In this document: in pieces, positions 24,368 to 39,967 of the stretch
Numbering within the stretch: the stretch's first letter is position 1
How the letters are laid out: each line of letters starts with the position of its first letter
Assembly (NCBI GenBank): GCA_043809645.1
Contig: JBDROX010000036.1
Location: 1,713-65,712, forward strand
DNA length: 64,000 nt
Origin: Candidatus Magasanikiibacteriota bacterium
GTDB lineage: Bacteria > Patescibacteriota > Patescibacteriia > Magasanikbacterales > UBA922
Direction: 5' to 3'
Position numbers and translations under genes: made by a program
Notes under the pieces: model-generated
Seen by the model: the letters and a program-made list of their open reading frames with translations, nothing else
The model's database searches: none
Told to the model about the DNA's origin: nothing

Positions 24368-24826
24368 ATGTCATTGAATTACGAGAAGAGTATAGTAGAT
24401 ATGTGCTCACTTGTCAAGAGTAACATTTTTCTGTATAATTGCTTTGATTATCATCTGAGTATAGCGAAATTTTCCATGTACCCAATCAAATTATATATCA
24501 AAAATTTACCCATTATTATCATGTTTGGGATTTCTGTACTTGTCAATCTTGCAAGCTGGTTTTGGTTGCTTTGGAATATACGTTTTGTAGATGAGCAGAT
24601 ATTTCTTCATTACAATATTCTTTTCGGGGTTGATCTTGTGGGCAATGCACAGAAGATCTTCTATCTTCCACTGCTTGGGCTTTGTATTCTCATTTTTAAT
24701 ACCCTTCTTGGTTGGGTGCTCTTTAGCAAAGATAAATTTGCGGCCCAAGCACTTCACACAGTCTCAGTGTTCTGTCAAATTGCTATTTTTATTTCAAGCT
24801 CAATACTCGTTTTTCTGAATGTCTAA
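24368..24826 (+). CDS. hypothetical membrane protein upstream of ftsW
   Basis: 152 aa (start uncertain), about 4 TM helices. Confidence 0.3.
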   Translation: MSLNYEKSIVDMCSLVKSNIFLYNCFDYHLSIAKFSMYPIKLYIKNLPIIIMFGISVLVNLASWFWLLWNIRFVDEQIFLHYNILFGVDLVGNAQKIFYLPLLGLCILIFNTLLGWVLFSKDKFAAQALHTVSVFCQIAIFISSSILVFLNV

Positions 24827-25928
24827 TATGAGCACTAGAACTATGCAGTCAGACAAGGTACTCCTTATTCTTTTTGGTGTACTTGTTGCATTCGGCATCG
24901 TCATGCTCACGTCAGCAGGCTCGGCTATTGGTTTGGAAAGATTTGATGATAGTTATTTTTTTGTAAAGAGACAGCTTCTCTACGGGCTTCTTCCTGGAAC
25001 ATTTATTTTCTTTCTATGTGTCAGAGTGAGTCTGGACTTTGTGAAGAGAAATGCTTTCTTTATCTTTGTTGTTTGTATATCTTTACTTCTCCTCGTCTTC
25101 ATTCCTGGCATTGGATCTTCTTACAATACTGGCGCAAATAGCTGGCTTCAAATTTGGAATTATTCATTTCAACCTTCAGAATTTGCAAAGTTAGCACTCA
25201 TTATTTTCTTTGCAGCATATCTTGGAAAAAAGAGTGAAGAACTTTTAAATTTTCAACAAGGATTTCTGATGGCTCTAGCTCTTGCTGGGATTCCAATTGT
25301 TTTGGTTGCACTGCAACCAGATATTGGAACTGTTGCGATTCTCTTCGCAATTGTCATAGGAATGCTCTTCGTTGCAGAAGCGAAAATTTTACATATTTCT
25401 CTTCTAGCAGGTGCTGGAATATTTGTTTTTTTCCTTATGACGATCATTGCGCCATACAGGGCTGAGCGACTTACAACTTTTTTGCACCCAGAACTCGATC
25501 CACAGGGAATTGGGTATCAAATTAACCAGTCTTTTATTGCAATAGGCTCTGGTGGTATATTTGGTCACGGACTTGGGCACTCGCGTCAAAAGTATCAGTA
25601 TCTTCCAGAAGTCCATGCCGATAGTATTTTCGCAATTATTGCAGAAGAAATGGGTTTTGTAGTAACTATTGGATTCATTTTACTTCTCGTTTTTATTACT
25701 ATCCGTGGCCTGAAGATTTCGAGGACCGCTCCAGACATGTTTTCAAGGCTTTTGGTAGCTGGTATTATTATTTGGATTGTTGCACAGTCATTTCTTAATA
25801 TTGGTGCAATTGTAGGACTTCTACCTCTGACAGGAGTCCCACTTCCATTCGTGAGTCACGGTGGTACTGCACTAATGATTGCCATGGCCGGCATGGGCTT
25901 TGTCATCAATGTGAGTAGACATACATAA
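24819..25928 (+). CDS. ftsW: SEDS-family peptidoglycan glycosyltransferase FtsW/RodA
   Basis: 369 aa polytopic; FIAIGSGGIFGHGLG and EEMGFV motifs. Confidence 0.85.
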   Translation: MSNMSTRTMQSDKVLLILFGVLVAFGIVMLTSAGSAIGLERFDDSYFFVKRQLLYGLLPGTFIFFLCVRVSLDFVKRNAFFIFVVCISLLLLVFIPGIGSSYNTGANSWLQIWNYSFQPSEFAKLALIIFFAAYLGKKSEELLNFQQGFLMALALAGIPIVLVALQPDIGTVAILFAIVIGMLFVAEAKILHISLLAGAGIFVFFLMTIIAPYRAERLTTFLHPELDPQGIGYQINQSFIAIGSGGIFGHGLGHSRQKYQYLPEVHADSIFAIIAEEMGFVVTIGFILLLVFITIRGLKISRTAPDMFSRLLVAGIIIWIVAQSFLNIGAIVGLLPLTGVPLPFVSHGGTALMIAMAGMGFVINVSRHT

Positions 25929-25929
25929 T

Positions 25930-27000
25930 ATGAAAATTATTCTTTCAGGCGGAGGTACGCTTGGTCCAGTAACGCCACTTCTTGCAATTTATGAAGCGTT
26001 AACAAGAGAATATAAAGACGCTACTTTTATTTGGATTGGAACAAAGGGTGGTCCAGAAAAAGAGATTGTTGAGAAAGCTGGCATACCCTTCATTGCTATT
26101 ACATCTGGAAAGTTGAGAAGGTATATTTCTTTTTGGAACGTCATAGATATTTTTAGAATCGTTATTGGTTTTTTTCGATCTATCGGCATTATGTTTCGCT
26201 ATAGTCCAGATGCCTGTATCTCTGCTGGTGGATATGTTTCAGTGCCATTACACTGGGCAGCCTGGCTCTTTGGCGTTCCTTCTTGGATTCATCAGCAAGA
26301 TGTGCAAGTAGGTCTTTCGAACAGGTTCATGGCACCTTTCGCACGTATAATCACGACTTCTCTAGAGAGTCAGATGAAACTATTTCCAAAAAGAAAAGTA
26401 AAGTGGATTGGAAATCCTGTTAGAAATGAAATTTTGAGTGGATCAAAAGATAGAGCAATGGAGTTGTTTGACCTAAAAGAGGATCTACCTATTATTTTTG
26501 CAACAGGTGGGGGAACTGGGTCGCTACGTGTTAATCAGATGATAGTGGAGGCTGTTGGACATCTCAAGGGCCATGCACAAATTATTCACCTCACTGGAAA
26601 GGAAAGACCTCAAGAACTTGCAGAAAAAGCGCAAAAACATTTTGATTACTATCAGGTTCATCAATTTTTTTCCGAGGAGATGAAACATGCATATGCTGCT
26701 GCTGATATTGTGATATCGCGTGGCGGGTTTGGAACACTGAGTGAACTGGCAGCACTCTCGAAGCCAGCCATTCTTATTCCAAAACATGGTCACCAAGTTC
26801 AGAACGTTTCATTTCTTGCTGAGGCCGGTGCCGTAGAGGTAGTTGATGAAACAACGAAGGATGGAAATTATCTTGCAAGACTTGTAAAGGATTTGATTTC
26901 AGATAAAAATAGAATGATAACGCTCGGAAGTACACTGAACAAGACAATGCCTCTGGCAACAGAGACAAAAATAGTTGGTATATTAAAAAGCATTTTGTAA
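25930..27000 (+). CDS. murG: undecaprenyldiphospho-muramoylpentapeptide beta-N-acetylglucosaminyltransferase
   Basis: MKIILSGGGTLGPVTPLLAI, GT28 fold; 2-nt gap after ftsW. Confidence 0.85.
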   Translation: MKIILSGGGTLGPVTPLLAIYEALTREYKDATFIWIGTKGGPEKEIVEKAGIPFIAITSGKLRRYISFWNVIDIFRIVIGFFRSIGIMFRYSPDACISAGGYVSVPLHWAAWLFGVPSWIHQQDVQVGLSNRFMAPFARIITTSLESQMKLFPKRKVKWIGNPVRNEILSGSKDRAMELFDLKEDLPIIFATGGGTGSLRVNQMIVEAVGHLKGHAQIIHLTGKERPQELAEKAQKHFDYYQVHQFFSEEMKHAYAAADIVISRGGFGTLSELAALSKPAILIPKHGHQVQNVSFLAEAGAVEVVDETTKDGNYLARLVKDLISDKNRMITLGSTLNKTMPLATETKIVGILKSIL

Positions 27001-27153
27001 TCAGAGTGGGAAAAACTAACTATGATAATCCTTATTCTGTCTATAATTATTATCACCACTATTGCTTTGGTCGGCTTCTTTGTTGTTCGGAGCGTCGAAG
27101 ATGATGATTTGAGCGGAAGTTAATCTCATTTTTTTCCTCAACAATAGTAAAAA

Positions 27154-27178
27154 AACCTTGACTATCAAGGTTTTTTTA
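27154..27178 (+). terminator. rho-independent terminator
   Basis: aaccttga-cta-tcaaggtt followed by ttttttt. Confidence 0.55.
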
Positions 27179-27333
27179 CTATATATTAAGCGAAACCATG
27201 GAGGGAGAGATGCAGAATGATCTCATCGCTATGTTTGTAGTCTCCGCATGTCTATTGCTGGTCAGCTGGCTTATCGGCCGATATGCGGCACCATTGGGAG
27301 ATCGGCCATTCCAGTGGGGGCTGAGAGGGTCCT

Positions 27334-27528
27334 ATGAACCTAACACTTGCTATTCTGCTAGCACTACTCCTGGTAGTACTAGTCTGGTGGCAGATCAAGA
27401 CAAGTAGACCGTGGAATCTAATCGTCAGCGGGACGTCGACGATTCTCACGTTCTTTCTCATCACGATCGTTGTTTTTATCATACTCATTGTGAGTGCTGT
27501 TGATAAACAGCACTCACAGGGGTGGTGA
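27334..27528 (+). CDS. possible small two-TM peptide inside a GC-anomalous islet
   Basis: 64 aa MNLTLAILLALLLVVLVWWQ...ILTFFLITIVVFIILIV; overlaps another small ORF (27198-27407). Confidence 0.2.
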   Translation: MNLTLAILLALLLVVLVWWQIKTSRPWNLIVSGTSTILTFFLITIVVFIILIVSAVDKQHSQGW

Positions 27529-27609
27529 GGCACGACAAGGGGGATCCGGATGAAGTGGAGGCGTCTGGATCAAACAAAAAAACATCAGACTATGGTGTTT
27601 TTTTATATT

Positions 27610-29022
27610 CTAGAAAAATCTATCCCATATTGTAACAACGGAGAAGATTCCGAAGAAGATAAAGGAAAATATGATAATGATTCTACGCCAGATCTTTGGT
27701 TGAATTTCTTTTGGAAGCTCGCGGTAGTTTAGCCAATTGACAAGGCCAATGTGAACAAACATACACACAGCATTGATAACAGCACTAAGTATAAGGAGCG
27801 AAAGAGGTTCTGTGAAGCCGAGTGAGAAGACTAAAATACCAAATGCAATCTGTGCCCAGAGGAATGCAAAATAAATCTTCGAAAGATTTATCCTTCTCTC
27901 TTCATGTGATCGAATCGCAGCATAGTTCTCTGACATGATCCTACTTGTAGAATCCATAACTGAGAACTGTGTTGAGAAGAGCATAATTCCCATCAAAATA
28001 AGGAAGATTGATCCAAGTGCTGGAAATGTTTTACTTGCAATGATTCTTCCTTCATTGATAACAAAGTTTATACCTTCTGCATTCCCAGCCAATCCAAACG
28101 TTGTGGAGTAGGAGAGTAAGAGGAGAAAAGACATGGTGATGAGGCCTGTCAGAAAAAACACAAAAAAGTGTTCCTTGTTCACACTCTTCCACCATGATTC
28201 GAATCTACTCAAGTTTTCTTTTGTAGGATGAAACTCAAAACCATTGAGATCAATCTTCTGTTTTGTTCCACCAAAAAGGCCTTTTATTTTTTCTGTGAAA
28301 GCACCCATGCCGTATCCTTTTTCTCGAATATAACTTGATTGTGTAAGATTTAGATTTCCTCCAGCACCACTAAAGGCAAAGGCAGCCAGAAACACTGCTA
28401 TTGGAATTCCAGCTGGGAGGAACCAATATTCGCCTCCTTTTCCAATCAGACCTTGTCCGAGTGCTGCCCAGTCAGCTCCCTTTGCAAAGTATATAGTAAG
28501 AATAAAAACTGAAGGTATGCCGATCAATATAATCAACTTAGCAAATCGCTCGACAGTATTATAGATATATTTTCCAAAACTGAGGATGAGGCCGATCAAA
28601 AGTAAAAACACAATAGCGATGACAGTGCCTGTACCACCAAAGACTGAAGCAAAAAGTGCTCCAGACGAAGCAATAATACCTGGCCACCCAAACCCAATCA
28701 TTGTAGAGAAGATGAGCCAGAATGGGACCCATTTCCACCTCCTTGCAAGACCAATGAAAACACTCTCACCTCTGGCAAGTGAATATCGCTCTATCTCCAT
28801 ATTGATAAAGAACTGGAAAAAAATGCCAACAAGTGCTCCCCATGCAATGCCAAGTCCCCAGTTTGAGGAGAGATACGGCCAGAGAATAACTTCGCCAGAC
28901 CCGAGGCCAAGACCGAGCAGAATGAAGCTTGGGCCGAGGAGCTTGCGAAACGGAGGGGGCTTTGGAATTGATTTTGATTGTTTTTTGAGCATAAAAGCGG
29001 GATTATCTTGACTTTCTAACAA
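27610..29022 (-). CDS. NRAMP/MntH-like divalent metal transporter (distant)
   Basis: 470 aa, about 11 TM; GPSFILLGLGLGSGEVILWPYL...MEIERYSLARGESV parallels the NRAMP GPGFL...DPGN...LLW...LQELSARLG signature. Confidence 0.45.
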   Translation of the reverse strand: MLESQDNPAFMLKKQSKSIPKPPPFRKLLGPSFILLGLGLGSGEVILWPYLSSNWGLGIAWGALVGIFFQFFINMEIERYSLARGESVFIGLARRWKWVPFWLIFSTMIGFGWPGIIASSGALFASVFGGTGTVIAIVFLLLIGLILSFGKYIYNTVERFAKLIILIGIPSVFILTIYFAKGADWAALGQGLIGKGGEYWFLPAGIPIAVFLAAFAFSGAGGNLNLTQSSYIREKGYGMGAFTEKIKGLFGGTKQKIDLNGFEFHPTKENLSRFESWWKSVNKEHFFVFFLTGLITMSFLLLLSYSTTFGLAGNAEGINFVINEGRIIASKTFPALGSIFLILMGIMLFSTQFSVMDSTSRIMSENYAAIRSHEERRINLSKIYFAFLWAQIAFGILVFSLGFTEPLSLLILSAVINAVCMFVHIGLVNWLNYRELPKEIQPKIWRRIIIIFSFIFFGIFSVVTIWDRFF

Positions 29023-29059: not shown

Positions 29060-29136
29060 GGCCTGGTAGCTCAGCCTGGTAGAGCAGTTGCCTTTTAAGC
29101 AAACGGTCCTGGGTTCGAATCCCAGCCAGGTCACCA
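29060..29136 (+). tRNA. tRNA-Lys(TTT) with encoded CCA
   Basis: Hand-folded cloverleaf; anticodon loop CTTTTAA; T arm CTGGG-TTCGAAT-CCCAG; ends ACCA. Confidence 0.85.
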
Positions 29137-29330: not shown

Positions 29331-32003
29331 TTGAGGCGTCTTATGAACTTCTACCAACAGACAATAGAAGCAGTTTTTGATCATTTTAAGGTTGATGAAA
29401 AACAAGGTTTGAGTGGTTTAAAAGTGAAGAAAGCGCTGAAGATACATGGCAAGAACGAGCTTCCAAGAGCACGAAAGAAAACAACAAACTTGAAAATCTT
29501 TTTGAATCAATGGAAAAGTCCATTGCTTTTTATTTTGTTGGTTGCTGGCTTCATTAGCGGGCTTCTAGGTGAGTACACTGACATGACAGTTATCCTGCTC
29601 ACTGCAGGGATCAATGCTGCCATTGGATACATTCAGGAGAATAAAGCAAATAGTGCACTAGAAAAACTTCAAGAAATGGTTGCATATCAGGCCACAGTGA
29701 TGAGAGATGGAAAAAAGCTTCAGATAGAAAGTAGTAATCTTGTGCCTGGTGATATTCTTTTCCTAGAGGCTGGAGATAAAATTCAGGCAGATGCAAGAAT
29801 CATCTCCACGGTTGATTTCGAAGTACACGAGGCAGCTCTCACAGGAGAGTCACAGGAAGTGAAGAAGAGCCGAGGCGTGATCAAAGATGAAATCGGCGTT
29901 GCTGATAGATACAACACTGTATTCCGAGGGACTACTGCAGTGAATGGACACGCTGTCGTTGTTGTCATTAATACTGGTGAGGAAACAGAGATAGGGAAGA
30001 TTGCCACAATGGTCAAAGATATTAAAGATGAGGAAACACCTCTTCAGAATCAGCTCAAAAAATTAAGTCAAAAGCTTGGTGCGATCGTCCTTGTCATATC
30101 TTTTCTCATTTTCTTGCTTGGAATTTTTGTCAGCAAGGATACAACAATATTTGAAATGTTTGAGACGGCAGTCGCTATTTCAGTTGCTGCCATTCCTGAA
30201 GGACTCATCATATCCCTGACAGTCATACTTGCAATTGGTATGCAGTTTATCCTGAAACGGAACGCACTTGTTCGACGACTTGTGTCTGCAGAGACACTAG
30301 GGAGTGTCAGTGTTATTTGTACAGACAAGACAGGAACTGTCACAGAAGGAAAAATGAGTGTCACAGAACTTGTTACGAAATCAGAACATCTGGATGTTGA
30401 TGAGCTGAGAGTACTGAATTCAAAAAAGGAGGATAGGCATGCTGAAGCATTATTGGCACTTCGCATTGGCACGCTCTGCAACAACGCAAGTCAGAACAGT
30501 GAGAATATATTTGTTGGTGATACTACAGAGACGGCTCTGGCAGAAATAGGATTCTCTGCTGGCATAAATAAAGTGGATTTGGAGAAAACAGTGAGGCGTA
30601 TTGACGAAATTCCTTTTAGTAGTAGAGAGAAGTACATGGTGACGCTTCATCATGCATCAGACGCTGCTTTCATATATGCGAAAGGTGCTCCAGAAGTCAT
30701 TCTTTCAAAGTGCAGTTACTTGAGTACAGCAGGAGGGAATATAAAACTTGAAAAAAAAGAAAAAGATTGGCTTGAGGATGAAATCAGAAAACTTACTGCA
30801 AAAGGATTGCGAGTACTTGCACTTGCGTACAAGGGTACAGATTTATCTTTGGTAGATCTGGGTTCAGAAGATGAAGAAAATCTAACTTTTGCAGGTATAG
30901 TTGGCCTTTCTGATCCAGTTCGTACAGATGTTAAACAAACAATTGAGGTTGCCCGGCAAGCGGGTATTCGAGTTATAATGGTAACAGGTGACCATGCAAT
31001 GACAGCGCGTGCGATTGCAAGCCAAATTGGACTGCCTTCAGATGATCAGAATGTTGTACGTGGTGATGAGCTGCAAAAGATGAGTGAGAAGAAACTCCTG
31101 CAAGTAGTAACACATGCAAGTGTCTTCGCACGCGTAGATCCAAGGGATAAAATTCGGATTGTGAATGCTCTAAAGAAGAATGGGGAGGTTGTTGCTATGA
31201 CAGGGGATGGCGTGAATGATGCTCCAGCGCTCAAAGGAGCAGACATTGGTGTTGCAGTCGGATCTGGCACTGATGTTGCAAAGGAAGTTGCTGAGCTTGT
31301 GATTCTTGATGATAAATTCCCAACTATTGTTGCAGCTGTAGAGGAGGGGAGAACAATTTATCAAAATATCAAGAAAGTTGTTCTCAAATTACTTTCTGAC
31401 AGTTTTACAGAAGTTATTCTTATCTCAGGCAGTCTCATTGCTGGACTTCCTCTTGCACTCCTTCCTGTTCAGATACTCTGGGTGAATCTCATTGAAGATT
31501 CTTTTCCAAATATGGCGCTTGCATTTGATAAGGGTGACAAGGAAAATATGAAAGATCCTCCACGCAAGAAAGGGGTCTCACTAATTGACAAGGAAATGAA
31601 GGTAATGATTGCTATTGTGACTATTGTTCACGATATTGGGCTCCTTACCGCCTATATCATTCTTTCTAAGATTGGTATGGATATTGCTCTTGTCCGTACT
31701 ATTATATTTGCAGCGCTCGCCACGGATTCACTGATTATTATTTATCCAATACGTAGCATGCGGCACATGCTCTGGCAGATCAATCCTTTTGATAACAGGT
31801 ATCTTACAATGAGTGTACTCCTTGGATTGGGATTGTTAATCCTTAGCATTTATGCACAACCTCTTCAATACTTACTTAAAACAATCCCACTGACGGCAGA
31901 GCATTGGCTCCTAGTGATACTTCTTGGTATAATCGACATTATACTTATCGAAGCCATTAAGGGAATTTTTCTTGTTAAAAATCATCATAAATTAAGTGAA
32001 TAA
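29331..32003 (+). CDS. P-type cation-transporting ATPase (P2-type, Ca2+/Mg2+-ATPase-like)
   Basis: 890 aa; ICTDKTGTVT phosphorylation site, TGES, MVTGD, GDGVNDAPAL, 10 TM. Confidence 0.9.
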   Translation: MRRLMNFYQQTIEAVFDHFKVDEKQGLSGLKVKKALKIHGKNELPRARKKTTNLKIFLNQWKSPLLFILLVAGFISGLLGEYTDMTVILLTAGINAAIGYIQENKANSALEKLQEMVAYQATVMRDGKKLQIESSNLVPGDILFLEAGDKIQADARIISTVDFEVHEAALTGESQEVKKSRGVIKDEIGVADRYNTVFRGTTAVNGHAVVVVINTGEETEIGKIATMVKDIKDEETPLQNQLKKLSQKLGAIVLVISFLIFLLGIFVSKDTTIFEMFETAVAISVAAIPEGLIISLTVILAIGMQFILKRNALVRRLVSAETLGSVSVICTDKTGTVTEGKMSVTELVTKSEHLDVDELRVLNSKKEDRHAEALLALRIGTLCNNASQNSENIFVGDTTETALAEIGFSAGINKVDLEKTVRRIDEIPFSSREKYMVTLHHASDAAFIYAKGAPEVILSKCSYLSTAGGNIKLEKKEKDWLEDEIRKLTAKGLRVLALAYKGTDLSLVDLGSEDEENLTFAGIVGLSDPVRTDVKQTIEVARQAGIRVIMVTGDHAMTARAIASQIGLPSDDQNVVRGDELQKMSEKKLLQVVTHASVFARVDPRDKIRIVNALKKNGEVVAMTGDGVNDAPALKGADIGVAVGSGTDVAKEVAELVILDDKFPTIVAAVEEGRTIYQNIKKVVLKLLSDSFTEVILISGSLIAGLPLALLPVQILWVNLIEDSFPNMALAFDKGDKENMKDPPRKKGVSLIDKEMKVMIAIVTIVHDIGLLTAYIILSKIGMDIALVRTIIFAALATDSLIIIYPIRSMRHMLWQINPFDNRYLTMSVLLGLGLLILSIYAQPLQYLLKTIPLTAEHWLLVILLGIIDIILIEAIKGIFLVKNHHKLSE

Positions 32004-37409: not shown

Positions 37410-37480
37410 TCCGGGGTCGTCTAATGGTAGGACTCCAGGTTTTGGTCCTGGCTATCGGGGTTCGAATCCCTGCCCCGGAG
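37410..37480 (+). tRNA. tRNA-Gln(TTG)
   Basis: Hand-folded: acceptor TCCGGGG/CCCCGGA, anticodon stem CCAGG/CCTGG with loop TTTTGGT, T loop TTCGAAT. Confidence 0.8.
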
Positions 37481-37566
37481 CTACGTAAAGTTCGCTACGT
37501 TCACAATGTGGCCAGCTCATATAAAAATGATCTTGCTGCGTGGTGACCGAAGGTCACTTTATGCGA

Positions 37567-37965
37567 TCGGCGGTAGCTCAGTGGTAGAGCAGTTGGCTGT
37601 AAAATTGTTTGCAGCCTTCAATGGAAACATTGGAGTGAAAACAAGGTGAATTGCTGGGAGCCCTCTCTCCTGAATTATCAGGTCTGGGTAATCAGCAGCC
37701 AATCCTTTGCGGAGACGCATTCAGGCAACAGGTGTAGAAATATACAGGTCTGCATGCGGCAAGATTTGCGAAGGCAGGTTCAGAGACTATCCTTAATTGG
37801 AGTAGTTCAAAGGTGGTGCACCTTTGAACGAAGCGCCTTGCACCCAAACGCTCTCGACAAGATCGAGTTATTACGTGGGTGATGATATATAGTCCATCCT
37901 TTGGTGAAAGCCAGAGACAAGATGTAACCAATTGGTCGCCGGTTCGAATCCGGCCCGCCGAGCCA
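37567..37965 (+). tRNA. tRNA-Asn(GTT) gene interrupted by a group I intron in the anticodon loop (exons 37567-37600 and 37925-37965, encoded CCA)
   Basis: Exons alone fold as a canonical tRNA: acceptor TCGGCGG/CCGCCGA, D arm GCTC-AGTGGTA-GAGC, anticodon stem GTTGG/CCAAT, spliced loop CTGT|TAA, T arm GCCGG-TTCGAAT-CCGGC, G73, CCA. Confidence 0.8.
37601..37924 (+). ncRNA. group I self-splicing intron (324 nt, ORF-less)
   Basis: P1: exon GGCTGT pairs with internal guide gcagcc (37611-37616), U.G at the splice site; P element aattgctggga (37649-37659); Q taatcagcagcc (37689-37700); R gttcagagactatcc (37779-37792); S gatgatatatagtcc (37881-37895); P7 GACTAT/ATAGTC; terminal G at 37924. Confidence 0.85.
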
Positions 37966-39380: not shown

Positions 39381-39967
39381 TGTAGACTCCTTTTTGTGTT
39401 ATCCGAATAGAGTGCTAACATGTTTTTAGGGTTTTGTCAAGACCCAAGTGGACAAAAACCGTATTGGCCAATACGCTTTTATAAAAAATTTACCGCCAAA
39501 GAAAAACTTGAAATCGCCAAGAAACACCCGACCTCCCCGCAAAAGCGGGGGTGATTGGTTAGGTGCGGCCGCCCCCCTCCGGCCGCACTCATTGTTGGAA
39601 ATGTTTTCGAACTTTCGCGTATTCGCGGAGCCCAGTATAAAAGAAGTTCACTAGGAACTTCTTTTTAATTTCGTATATTGACTTTAATGAAATTTTATGA
39701 TATCTTTGCAAAATCTTTATAGAAAAAGACTATATGTTAAATAAAGTACTAAAAAAATTAAAAGAGTCTGAAATGAAGAATCAGATACGTAGTAGCACTT
39801 CCTCAACGTATGCAGACTACGCCCATACGCTCAATACAAAAAGCTCTGGTTTTCATGCAAAGAAAACAAGTCAGCTAGGTGCTGAAAGGCAACGGAGTAT
39901 AGGCAATAGACAGGGGAAACCAACAAAGAAAACTACATAAAGCTGAATTAGTACTTTTTTTACTTTT

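Follow-up and report, generated by a model that had tools for sequence, protein, structure and literature searches.

The GC-rich islet that lies between two hairpin terminators downstream of murG (27190-27545) is best explained as a stand-alone unit for one lineage-specific orphan membrane protein of 64 residues and two helices, a reading that we hold to be slightly better than an even bet. The window, i.e., the whole 64-kb stretch of DNA that was analysed, comes from a metagenome-assembled Candidatus Magasanikbacteria genome (CPR/Patescibacteria). A sigma-70-like promoter inside the terminator of murG and the small frame ORF0 would start the transcription of an mRNA ~410 nt long (~27194-27605), made up of a 140-nt GC-rich leader, the open reading frame ORF2 and a hairpin-rich 3′ end. 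This mRNA would finish at a terminator common to the convergent Nramp transporter gene, and translation of ORF2 would give a hairpin of two membrane helices with a short basic turn (K22, R25). Most likely, the islet is an ordinary orphan gene with odd composition and palindromes.

Upstream of the islet lie ftsW (24819-25928; TIGR02614, E 1e-111) and murG (25930-27000; Glyco_transf_28 N- and C-terminal domains), the latter encoding the MurG protein MFH1286832.1. A 152-aa multi-helix membrane ORF (24368-24826, plus strand) was also seen immediately 5′ of ftsW, with an 8-nt overlap, and has neither a Pfam nor an NCBIfam match. The preliminary description had placed the islet directly after a strong murG terminator. 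The strong hairpin could be identified at 27144-27182, but ORF0 (27022-27123, plus strand, 33 codons) separates it from murG. On both strands the hairpin consists of an A-run, a CCTTGA/TCAAGG stem and a T-run, with fully (100%) complementary 18-nt arms, a 3-nt loop and a folding energy of -21 kcal/mol on the plus and -25.5 kcal/mol on the minus strand (z -7.9 and -8.4, respectively). It is a predicted bidirectional intrinsic terminator, which would close the ftsW-murG-ORF0 transcript and form the left border of the islet unit.

ORF0 itself has the translation MIILILSIIIITTIALVGFFVVRSVEDDDLSGS and is unannotated. It is host-like in composition with a strong period-3 signal (4.36, p 0.001), and its position between the murG stop codon and the terminator means that it would share a transcript with murG. 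The protein collection does not contain ORF0, and none of 20 related loci has a counterpart at this position.

On the other side, the islet is closed by a hairpin and, as described beforehand, a T-run (27576-27604; both strands, with flanking A- and T-runs). Its 12-nt arms are 92% complementary and its energy is -10.5 kcal/mol on the plus strand (z -4.4) and -7.6 kcal/mol on the minus strand, so that it is a predicted weak bidirectional terminator common to the islet unit and the convergent gene. The latter, announced as a transporter, is indeed an Nramp transporter gene (27610-29022, minus strand; NF037982, E 2.5e-96, 323 bits). Despite this strong NCBIfam match it has no Pfam-A model at E ≤ 1, and a Pfam miss alone is therefore uninformative for this lineage. 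Further downstream are tRNA-Lys (29060-29136) and a P-type ATPase gene (29331-32003). The putative promoter of the islet unit is a sigma-70-like match on the plus strand, TTGACT-18 nt-TATATT (27158-27187; 10 of 12 consensus positions), which lies partly within the left terminator hairpin and has a predicted start at ~27194. It is a consensus match only, as six matches of this grade occur in the region where 2.5 are expected.

The G+C content of 27190-27545 is 0.503 compared to a window mean of 0.397 (sd 0.038, 356-nt windows), and the windowed GC check proposed for the islet thus finds it deviant. The maximum for 356-nt windows in the 64 kb is 0.508, starting at 27212. The islet had been called GC-richer than anything around it; this is true locally, where in 200-nt steps the G+C is 0.52 at 27200-27399 and 0.33 in the preceding 200 nt, but five other stretches of the 64-kb window reach 0.494-0.50, i.e., less than one point below. 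An unbiased maximal-segment scan delimited 27190-27568 (379 nt, 51.2% G+C), which is nearly identical to the borders given at the outset. Its score of 10.15 is the second highest in the window, while the best segment of shuffled sequences scores 7.85 ± 1.34 and single shuffles reach up to 13.97. The composition anomaly is genuine, well delimited and locally striking; taken as composition alone, its significance is borderline. The sources of the GC excess are the leader, the GC-ending codons of ORF2 and the 3′ hairpins. The first-ranked GC segment (37411-37964) corresponds to tRNA-Gln and a second tRNA that is interrupted by a group I intron.

Two small ORFs had been proposed in the islet. Both were found at the coordinates described, ORF1 at 27198-27407 (69 aa) and ORF2 at 27334-27528 (64 aa), as open frames on the plus strand that overlap by 74 nt, but a coding signal is present in ORF2 only. 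ORF2 is identical to the GenBank hypothetical protein ABII02_03720 and has already been called by NCBI's pipeline. As no homologue was found that could show conservation or selection of ORF2, the coding question was judged by signals intrinsic to the sequence.

The period-3 signal of ORF2 is 5.11 (p 5e-4 compared to shuffles) and exceeds that of 91% of the 192-nt chunks taken from nine long genes of the window. Each half of the frame is significant as well, with values of 3.48 (p 0.002) and 2.94 (p 0.007) and a common phase, and helix 2 alone reaches 5.67 (p 2e-4). The group I intron, used as a non-coding control, gave 1.06. T is found at codon position 2 in 33 of the 64 codons (p 2e-5), with fractions of 0.56 and 0.49 in the two halves and 0.67 in helix 2 alone (67% T and 0% A). 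Part of the periodicity could be supplied by a repeat, since helix 1 is encoded by a CTA/GTA-rich palindrome. The 19-residue hydropathy peak of ORF2 (3.11) is the highest among the 216 window ORFs of 50-100 aa. The frame is intact and its ATG is the first after an in-frame stop, a TGA 9 nt before the ATG. An ensemble fold of 27194-27606 gave unpaired probabilities of 0.64 for the SD-like motif and 0.75 for the ATG with a transcript mean of 0.32, and the start region is the most accessible part of the predicted transcript in this in silico fold. ORF2 looks like a real gene.

AlphaFold2 without an alignment predicted two helices for the ORF2 protein, 2-23 and 26-62, with a mean pLDDT of 77.8. 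Such a result is expected from a sequence of this kind and adds little. The turn between the helices is basic (K22, R25), and from the positive-inside rule we infer that the protein would be a membrane-inserted helical hairpin with this turn in the cytoplasm. ORF2 contains four K/R residues, and the predicted tryptic peptides include TSRPWNLIVSGTSTILTFFLITIVVFIILIVSAVDK and QHSQGW, of which the first is very hydrophobic. The description of the two frames as peptides with one or two transmembrane segments can be kept for ORF2, which behaves as a gene for a small two-helix membrane peptide, but probably not for ORF1, which has no coding signal.

ORF1 is probably an accidental open frame and not a gene. 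The interval that belongs to ORF1 only (27198-27332) has a period-3 signal of 0.98 (p 0.44), and the unpaired probability of its start codons is 0.31-0.45 in the ensemble fold. The frame is unannotated, is missing from the protein collection and found no homologue. As GC-rich sequence contains few stop codons, long open frames occur there by chance. ORF1 reads instead as part of the GC-rich 5′ leader (27194-27333, plus strand), which at 54.3% G+C is the GC-richest part of the islet and folds with no excess over shuffles (z -0.16 on the plus and +0.87 on the minus strand). The codon score of the 93-codon ORF on the antisense strand is the worst (-0.18), and a word-index protein search found no homologue of it.

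Codon use in the islet is unlike that of the host. GC3 is 0.54-0.60 in ORF2 and ORF1 and 0.50-0.60 over the islet, compared to 0.30-0.39 in the ftsW, murG, Nramp and ATPase genes. A codon log-odds score, for which 32 long ORFs served as the training set, is 0.073 for ORF2 and 0.022 for ORF1. With these values they are among the lowest-scoring 1.5% and 0.5% of real-gene chunks, respectively. Spurious window ORFs, included as a control, have low scores as expected; the scores of both frames fall within their range, and 16% of the spurious ORFs score higher than ORF2. CTA accounts for 5 of the 12 leucines of ORF2 (11% in the host) and ACG for 4 of its 6 threonines (9% in the host).

SD-like purine runs precede both ORF1 and ORF2, with GAGAGGG ahead of the latter. 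Only about 2 of the 32 long host ORFs have an SD motif at the first possible start codon, in agreement with published work in which the 16S rRNA of Parcubacteria often has no detectable anti-SD motif (PMC9297842). Since host genes are mostly without SD motifs, the GAGAGGG is of little weight and SD motifs were dropped as evidence of translation. Many of the 32 longest ORFs have a -10-like box (TATACT/TAGAAT-like) 4-8 nt 5′ of the start codon, which suggests mRNAs that are leaderless or have very short leaders.

The islet unit is thus unlike its host in G+C, in codon use and in the signals for initiation, which fits recent acquisition or a recent origin, and the ORF2 gene was possibly acquired from elsewhere. 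The foreign composition noted in the preliminary description is seen in GC3 and codon use, but no donor, flanking repeat or integrase was found in support of an acquisition. The only flanking repeats around the islet are AT-rich chance matches in coding sequence, no att-like repeat derived from tRNA-Lys and no integrase or mobility gene was found near the islet, and no donor could be identified in any of the protein, phage, plasmid or viral collections searched.

A word-index search of 5.8 billion clustered proteins matched ORF2 only to itself, and ORF1 to nothing. An exhaustive HMMER search with ORF1+ORF2 as the query against 1.84 billion representatives likewise gave ORF2 itself as the only real match. 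Two other HMMER matches were rejected as repeat proteins with summed weak stretches, one of them with an alignment that crosses the artificial ORF1/ORF2 junction. Pfam, NCBIfam, PHROGs and PADLOC returned nothing below E 0.01 for either ORF, in line with the earlier statement that neither has a recognisable family. No relative of the islet was found in phage, plasmid and viral-contig collections at the DNA or protein level, and no second copy or repeats within the 64-kb window.

We also investigated the murG loci of 28 relatives (15 genome and 13 metagenome loci; MurG identity 41-65%) with blastn, tblastn and nhmmer and found nothing similar to the islet, ORF0 or the Nramp gene. The search proposed beforehand for homologous islets at other loci or in other genomes thus found none in the window, the 28 murG loci and the collections searched. 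Gene order 3′ of murG varies from genome to genome. The interval from murG to tRNA-Lys/P-type ATPase differs in every relative examined and appears to be variable in this lineage. With MurG identities of no more than 65%, these collections contain no close relative. For this reason, and because the entire downstream region differs, an empty site for comparison cannot be delimited.

Unannotated hairpin-rich stretches also occur shortly after murG and between terminators in the two relatives whose MurG is nearest (62-65% identity; L001/L017 and L016), at 5150-5460 of L001 (2210-2520 of L017) and 5490-5670 of L016. These reach a G+C of 0.58-0.61 in genomes of 35-37% and have no gathering-level Rfam match. 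A common origin of these stretches and the islet was considered and rejected, as they share no sequence similarity.

An interval that is different in every relative examined, together with a lack of homologues for any frame, could mean that the islet is non-functional DNA, either a decaying foreign fragment in a variable region or an assembly chimera, with ORFs that are not expressed. Composition and codon use unlike the host and a GC-rich leader without coding or folding signal would agree with this. Yet the ORF2 frame is intact from the first ATG that follows an in-frame stop, its periodicity is strong and its start is open. The islet also fills precisely the space between two terminators, with a promoter-like site at the upstream end, and no flanking direct repeats, tRNA-derived att-like repeats or mobility genes were found. 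We therefore find non-functional DNA unlikely.

The folding of the islet was compared with 14 other window positions on both strands, which gave a background z of -0.59 ± 1.04 (minimum -2.17). The islet unit without terminators has z -3.75 on the plus and -3.19 on the minus strand, and with terminators -5.78. The body of ORF2 folds with z -4.75 (plus) and -5.32 (minus), which is unusual for coding sequence in this window. Its last codons contain a perfect 13-bp palindrome with a 4-nt loop (27489-27518, both strands), which is the core of a longer stem at ~27471-27530 (-28.3 kcal/mol, z -5.9), while the CTA/GTA-rich palindrome of helix 1 is a predicted hairpin (27349-27395). Folding that is strong on both strands, and slightly stronger on the minus strand, points to DNA palindromes rather than an RNA-specific fold. 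The only strand-specific part is the 47-nt 3′ untranslated region (27529-27575; z -3.06 on the plus compared to +0.33 on the minus strand). A GC-rich hairpin with a 10-bp stem, GGGGAUCCGGAU...GUCUGGAUC (27541-27572, plus strand), was found in both minimum-energy and ensemble folds of this region.

In AT-rich genomes, a GC-rich island is often the sign of an RNA gene. An example in this window is the top-ranked GC segment with its two tRNAs and group I intron, and the islet had likewise been suggested to be a structured RNA. It would then be a non-coding RNA of ~380-410 nt, bracketed by the promoter-like site and the terminator, and both ORFs would be accidental; its folding well beyond the background, the host-unlike codon use and the orphan state of the ORFs are all consistent with this. 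The excess folding is, however, on both strands in the ORF2 part and absent from the GC-richest 5′ 140 nt, and ORF2 has coding periodicity in both halves at a level not approached by the intron control. No Rfam 15 family was found at the islet when the whole window was searched in gathering mode. A search of 27000-27700 (701 nt) at E ≤ 10 with lax filters gave only sub-threshold matches on the terminator hairpins, including the sole "OrzO-P" match (22.8 bits with a threshold of 60). The lax mode recovered the group I intron that the default mode had missed, and its negative outcome at the islet is therefore meaningful. RNase P RNA and tmRNA were considered because of the size of ~400 nt and dropped when no match was obtained; ARAGORN found no tmRNA in the window. 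No related sequence that would allow a covariation test was found in the 28 murG loci or in the phage, plasmid and viral collections. A structured RNA is thus an improbable explanation of the islet.

The group I intron (RF00028; 82.1 bits, E 3e-21, 37591-37916) is inserted in the anticodon loop of a tRNA at 37567-37965 on the plus strand. This tRNA adjoins tRNA-Gln, has exons at ~37567-37597 and 37925-37965 and a short variable arm, and is possibly Thr-UGU. The split tRNA was missed by ARAGORN, and the intron by the default Rfam search of the whole window. Another GC-rich stretch, 39515-39635 (plus strand, 121 nt, 61% G+C), lies in a gene-poor interval and contains the GC hairpins ccccgcaaaagcgggg and gtgcggccgcccccctccggccgcac, followed by a terminator-like hairpin. 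It is Rfam negative at E ≤ 0.1 and a possible small RNA.

The preliminary description also suggested an acquired toxin-like or type I toxin-antitoxin-like module. In a hok/mok-like system, ORF2 would encode a membrane-damaging peptide, ORF1 would control the translation of ORF2, and an antisense RNA from the minus strand would repress it. A small hydrophobic peptide in its own ~410-nt promoter-terminator unit of atypical composition, with a predicted mRNA that is highly structured, would suit such a module. The mok frame overlaps hok, and by analogy the 74-nt overlap of ORF1 and ORF2 might have the same meaning. The minus strand carries a promoter-like match (27506-27478), and termination on both strands is predicted for the left hairpin; the antisense promoter, however, matches only 9 of 12 positions, and such matches are common in the region. 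ORF1 lacks coding periodicity, and the predicted start of ORF2 is open and not sequestered (0.64 and 0.75 compared to a mean of 0.32, in silico). Type I toxins are typically ~20-60 aa long with one membrane helix, a size that ORF2 with 64 aa and two helices exceeds. Type I toxin-antitoxin families are also usually multi-copy and mobile, whereas the islet is single-copy and without relatives. Finally, no toxin protein or antitoxin RNA family was matched in Pfam, NCBIfam, PADLOC or Rfam. The toxin-antitoxin reading was therefore not sustained and seems improbable to us. A further reading, in which a bifunctional or toxin-type RNA/peptide module in a CPR bacterium combines the folded ~410-nt mRNA with a membrane-active two-helix peptide restrained by antisense RNA or its own hairpins, is likewise improbable.

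ORF1 and ORF2 might also be two parts of one frameshifted gene for a three-helix protein of ~105 aa, split by a one-base indel or read by programmed frameshifting, as the frames differ by +1 and one G less in the GGG at 27327-27329 would join them (...GLRGPMNLTL...), and as the N-terminal part of ORF1 contains one hydrophobic stretch, in which 13 of 24 codons have T at position 2 (p 0.004); but this is very improbable, because the ORF1-only part is without period-3 signal (0.98, p 0.44), about one quarter of the 216 window ORFs of 50-100 aa, spurious ones included, have one such stretch, the joined protein does no better than ORF2 alone against PHROGs families, and there is a stop codon (TGA) in frame 9 nt ahead of the ATG of ORF2.

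With an orphan two-helix membrane protein as the preferred reading, the significance of the islet is small: ORF2 is a further small membrane protein without a family in a phylum rich in hypothetical genes, and the gene is already annotated. The islet also serves as a worked example of an island that is rich in GC and hairpins, lies in an AT-rich genome and is probably no structural RNA, unlike the top-ranked island of the same window. If an antisense partner or toxicity were real, the islet would open a way to the study of toxin-type small-peptide modules in CPR bacteria; no paper linking type I toxin-antitoxin systems with the Candidate Phyla Radiation was found in the literature searched.

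The islet shares several features with the hok/mok/sok loci, namely a predicted folded mRNA of ~400 nt, a hydrophobic peptide, an overlapping upstream frame and a stand-alone intergenic position. It differs from them in having no sequence or RNA-family match, two helices instead of one, an open start and a single copy, and its upstream frame has no coding signal and no demonstrable antisense gene accompanies it. GhoT-type (type V) toxins and class II holins/pinholins are ~57-70 aa long and have two membrane helices, and the ORF2 model resembles them in size and helix number. However, ORF2 has no Pfam, PHROG or PADLOC match, its C-terminal tail is not highly charged, and its neighbours are murG and the Nramp gene, with no GhoS-like or endolysin gene beside it.

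A structure search with the ORF2 model returned CrgA (2MMU), a two-helix cell division protein of Actinobacteria, as the sole PDB structure (E 9.9, probability 0.04, TM 0.30). Both are small helical hairpins and ORF2 adjoins the ftsW-murG division genes, but the match lacks significance, the sequences are not similar, and any two-helix hairpin would match; CrgA was therefore rejected as a candidate. The closest resemblance is to the orphan small membrane proteins of bacteria (<70 aa, one or two helices), with which ORF2 agrees in size, predicted helices, basic turn, a putative small transcription unit of its own and lack of a family. Compared to these, the ORF2 unit is unusually GC-rich and hairpin-rich for its genome and would carry a 140-nt leader.
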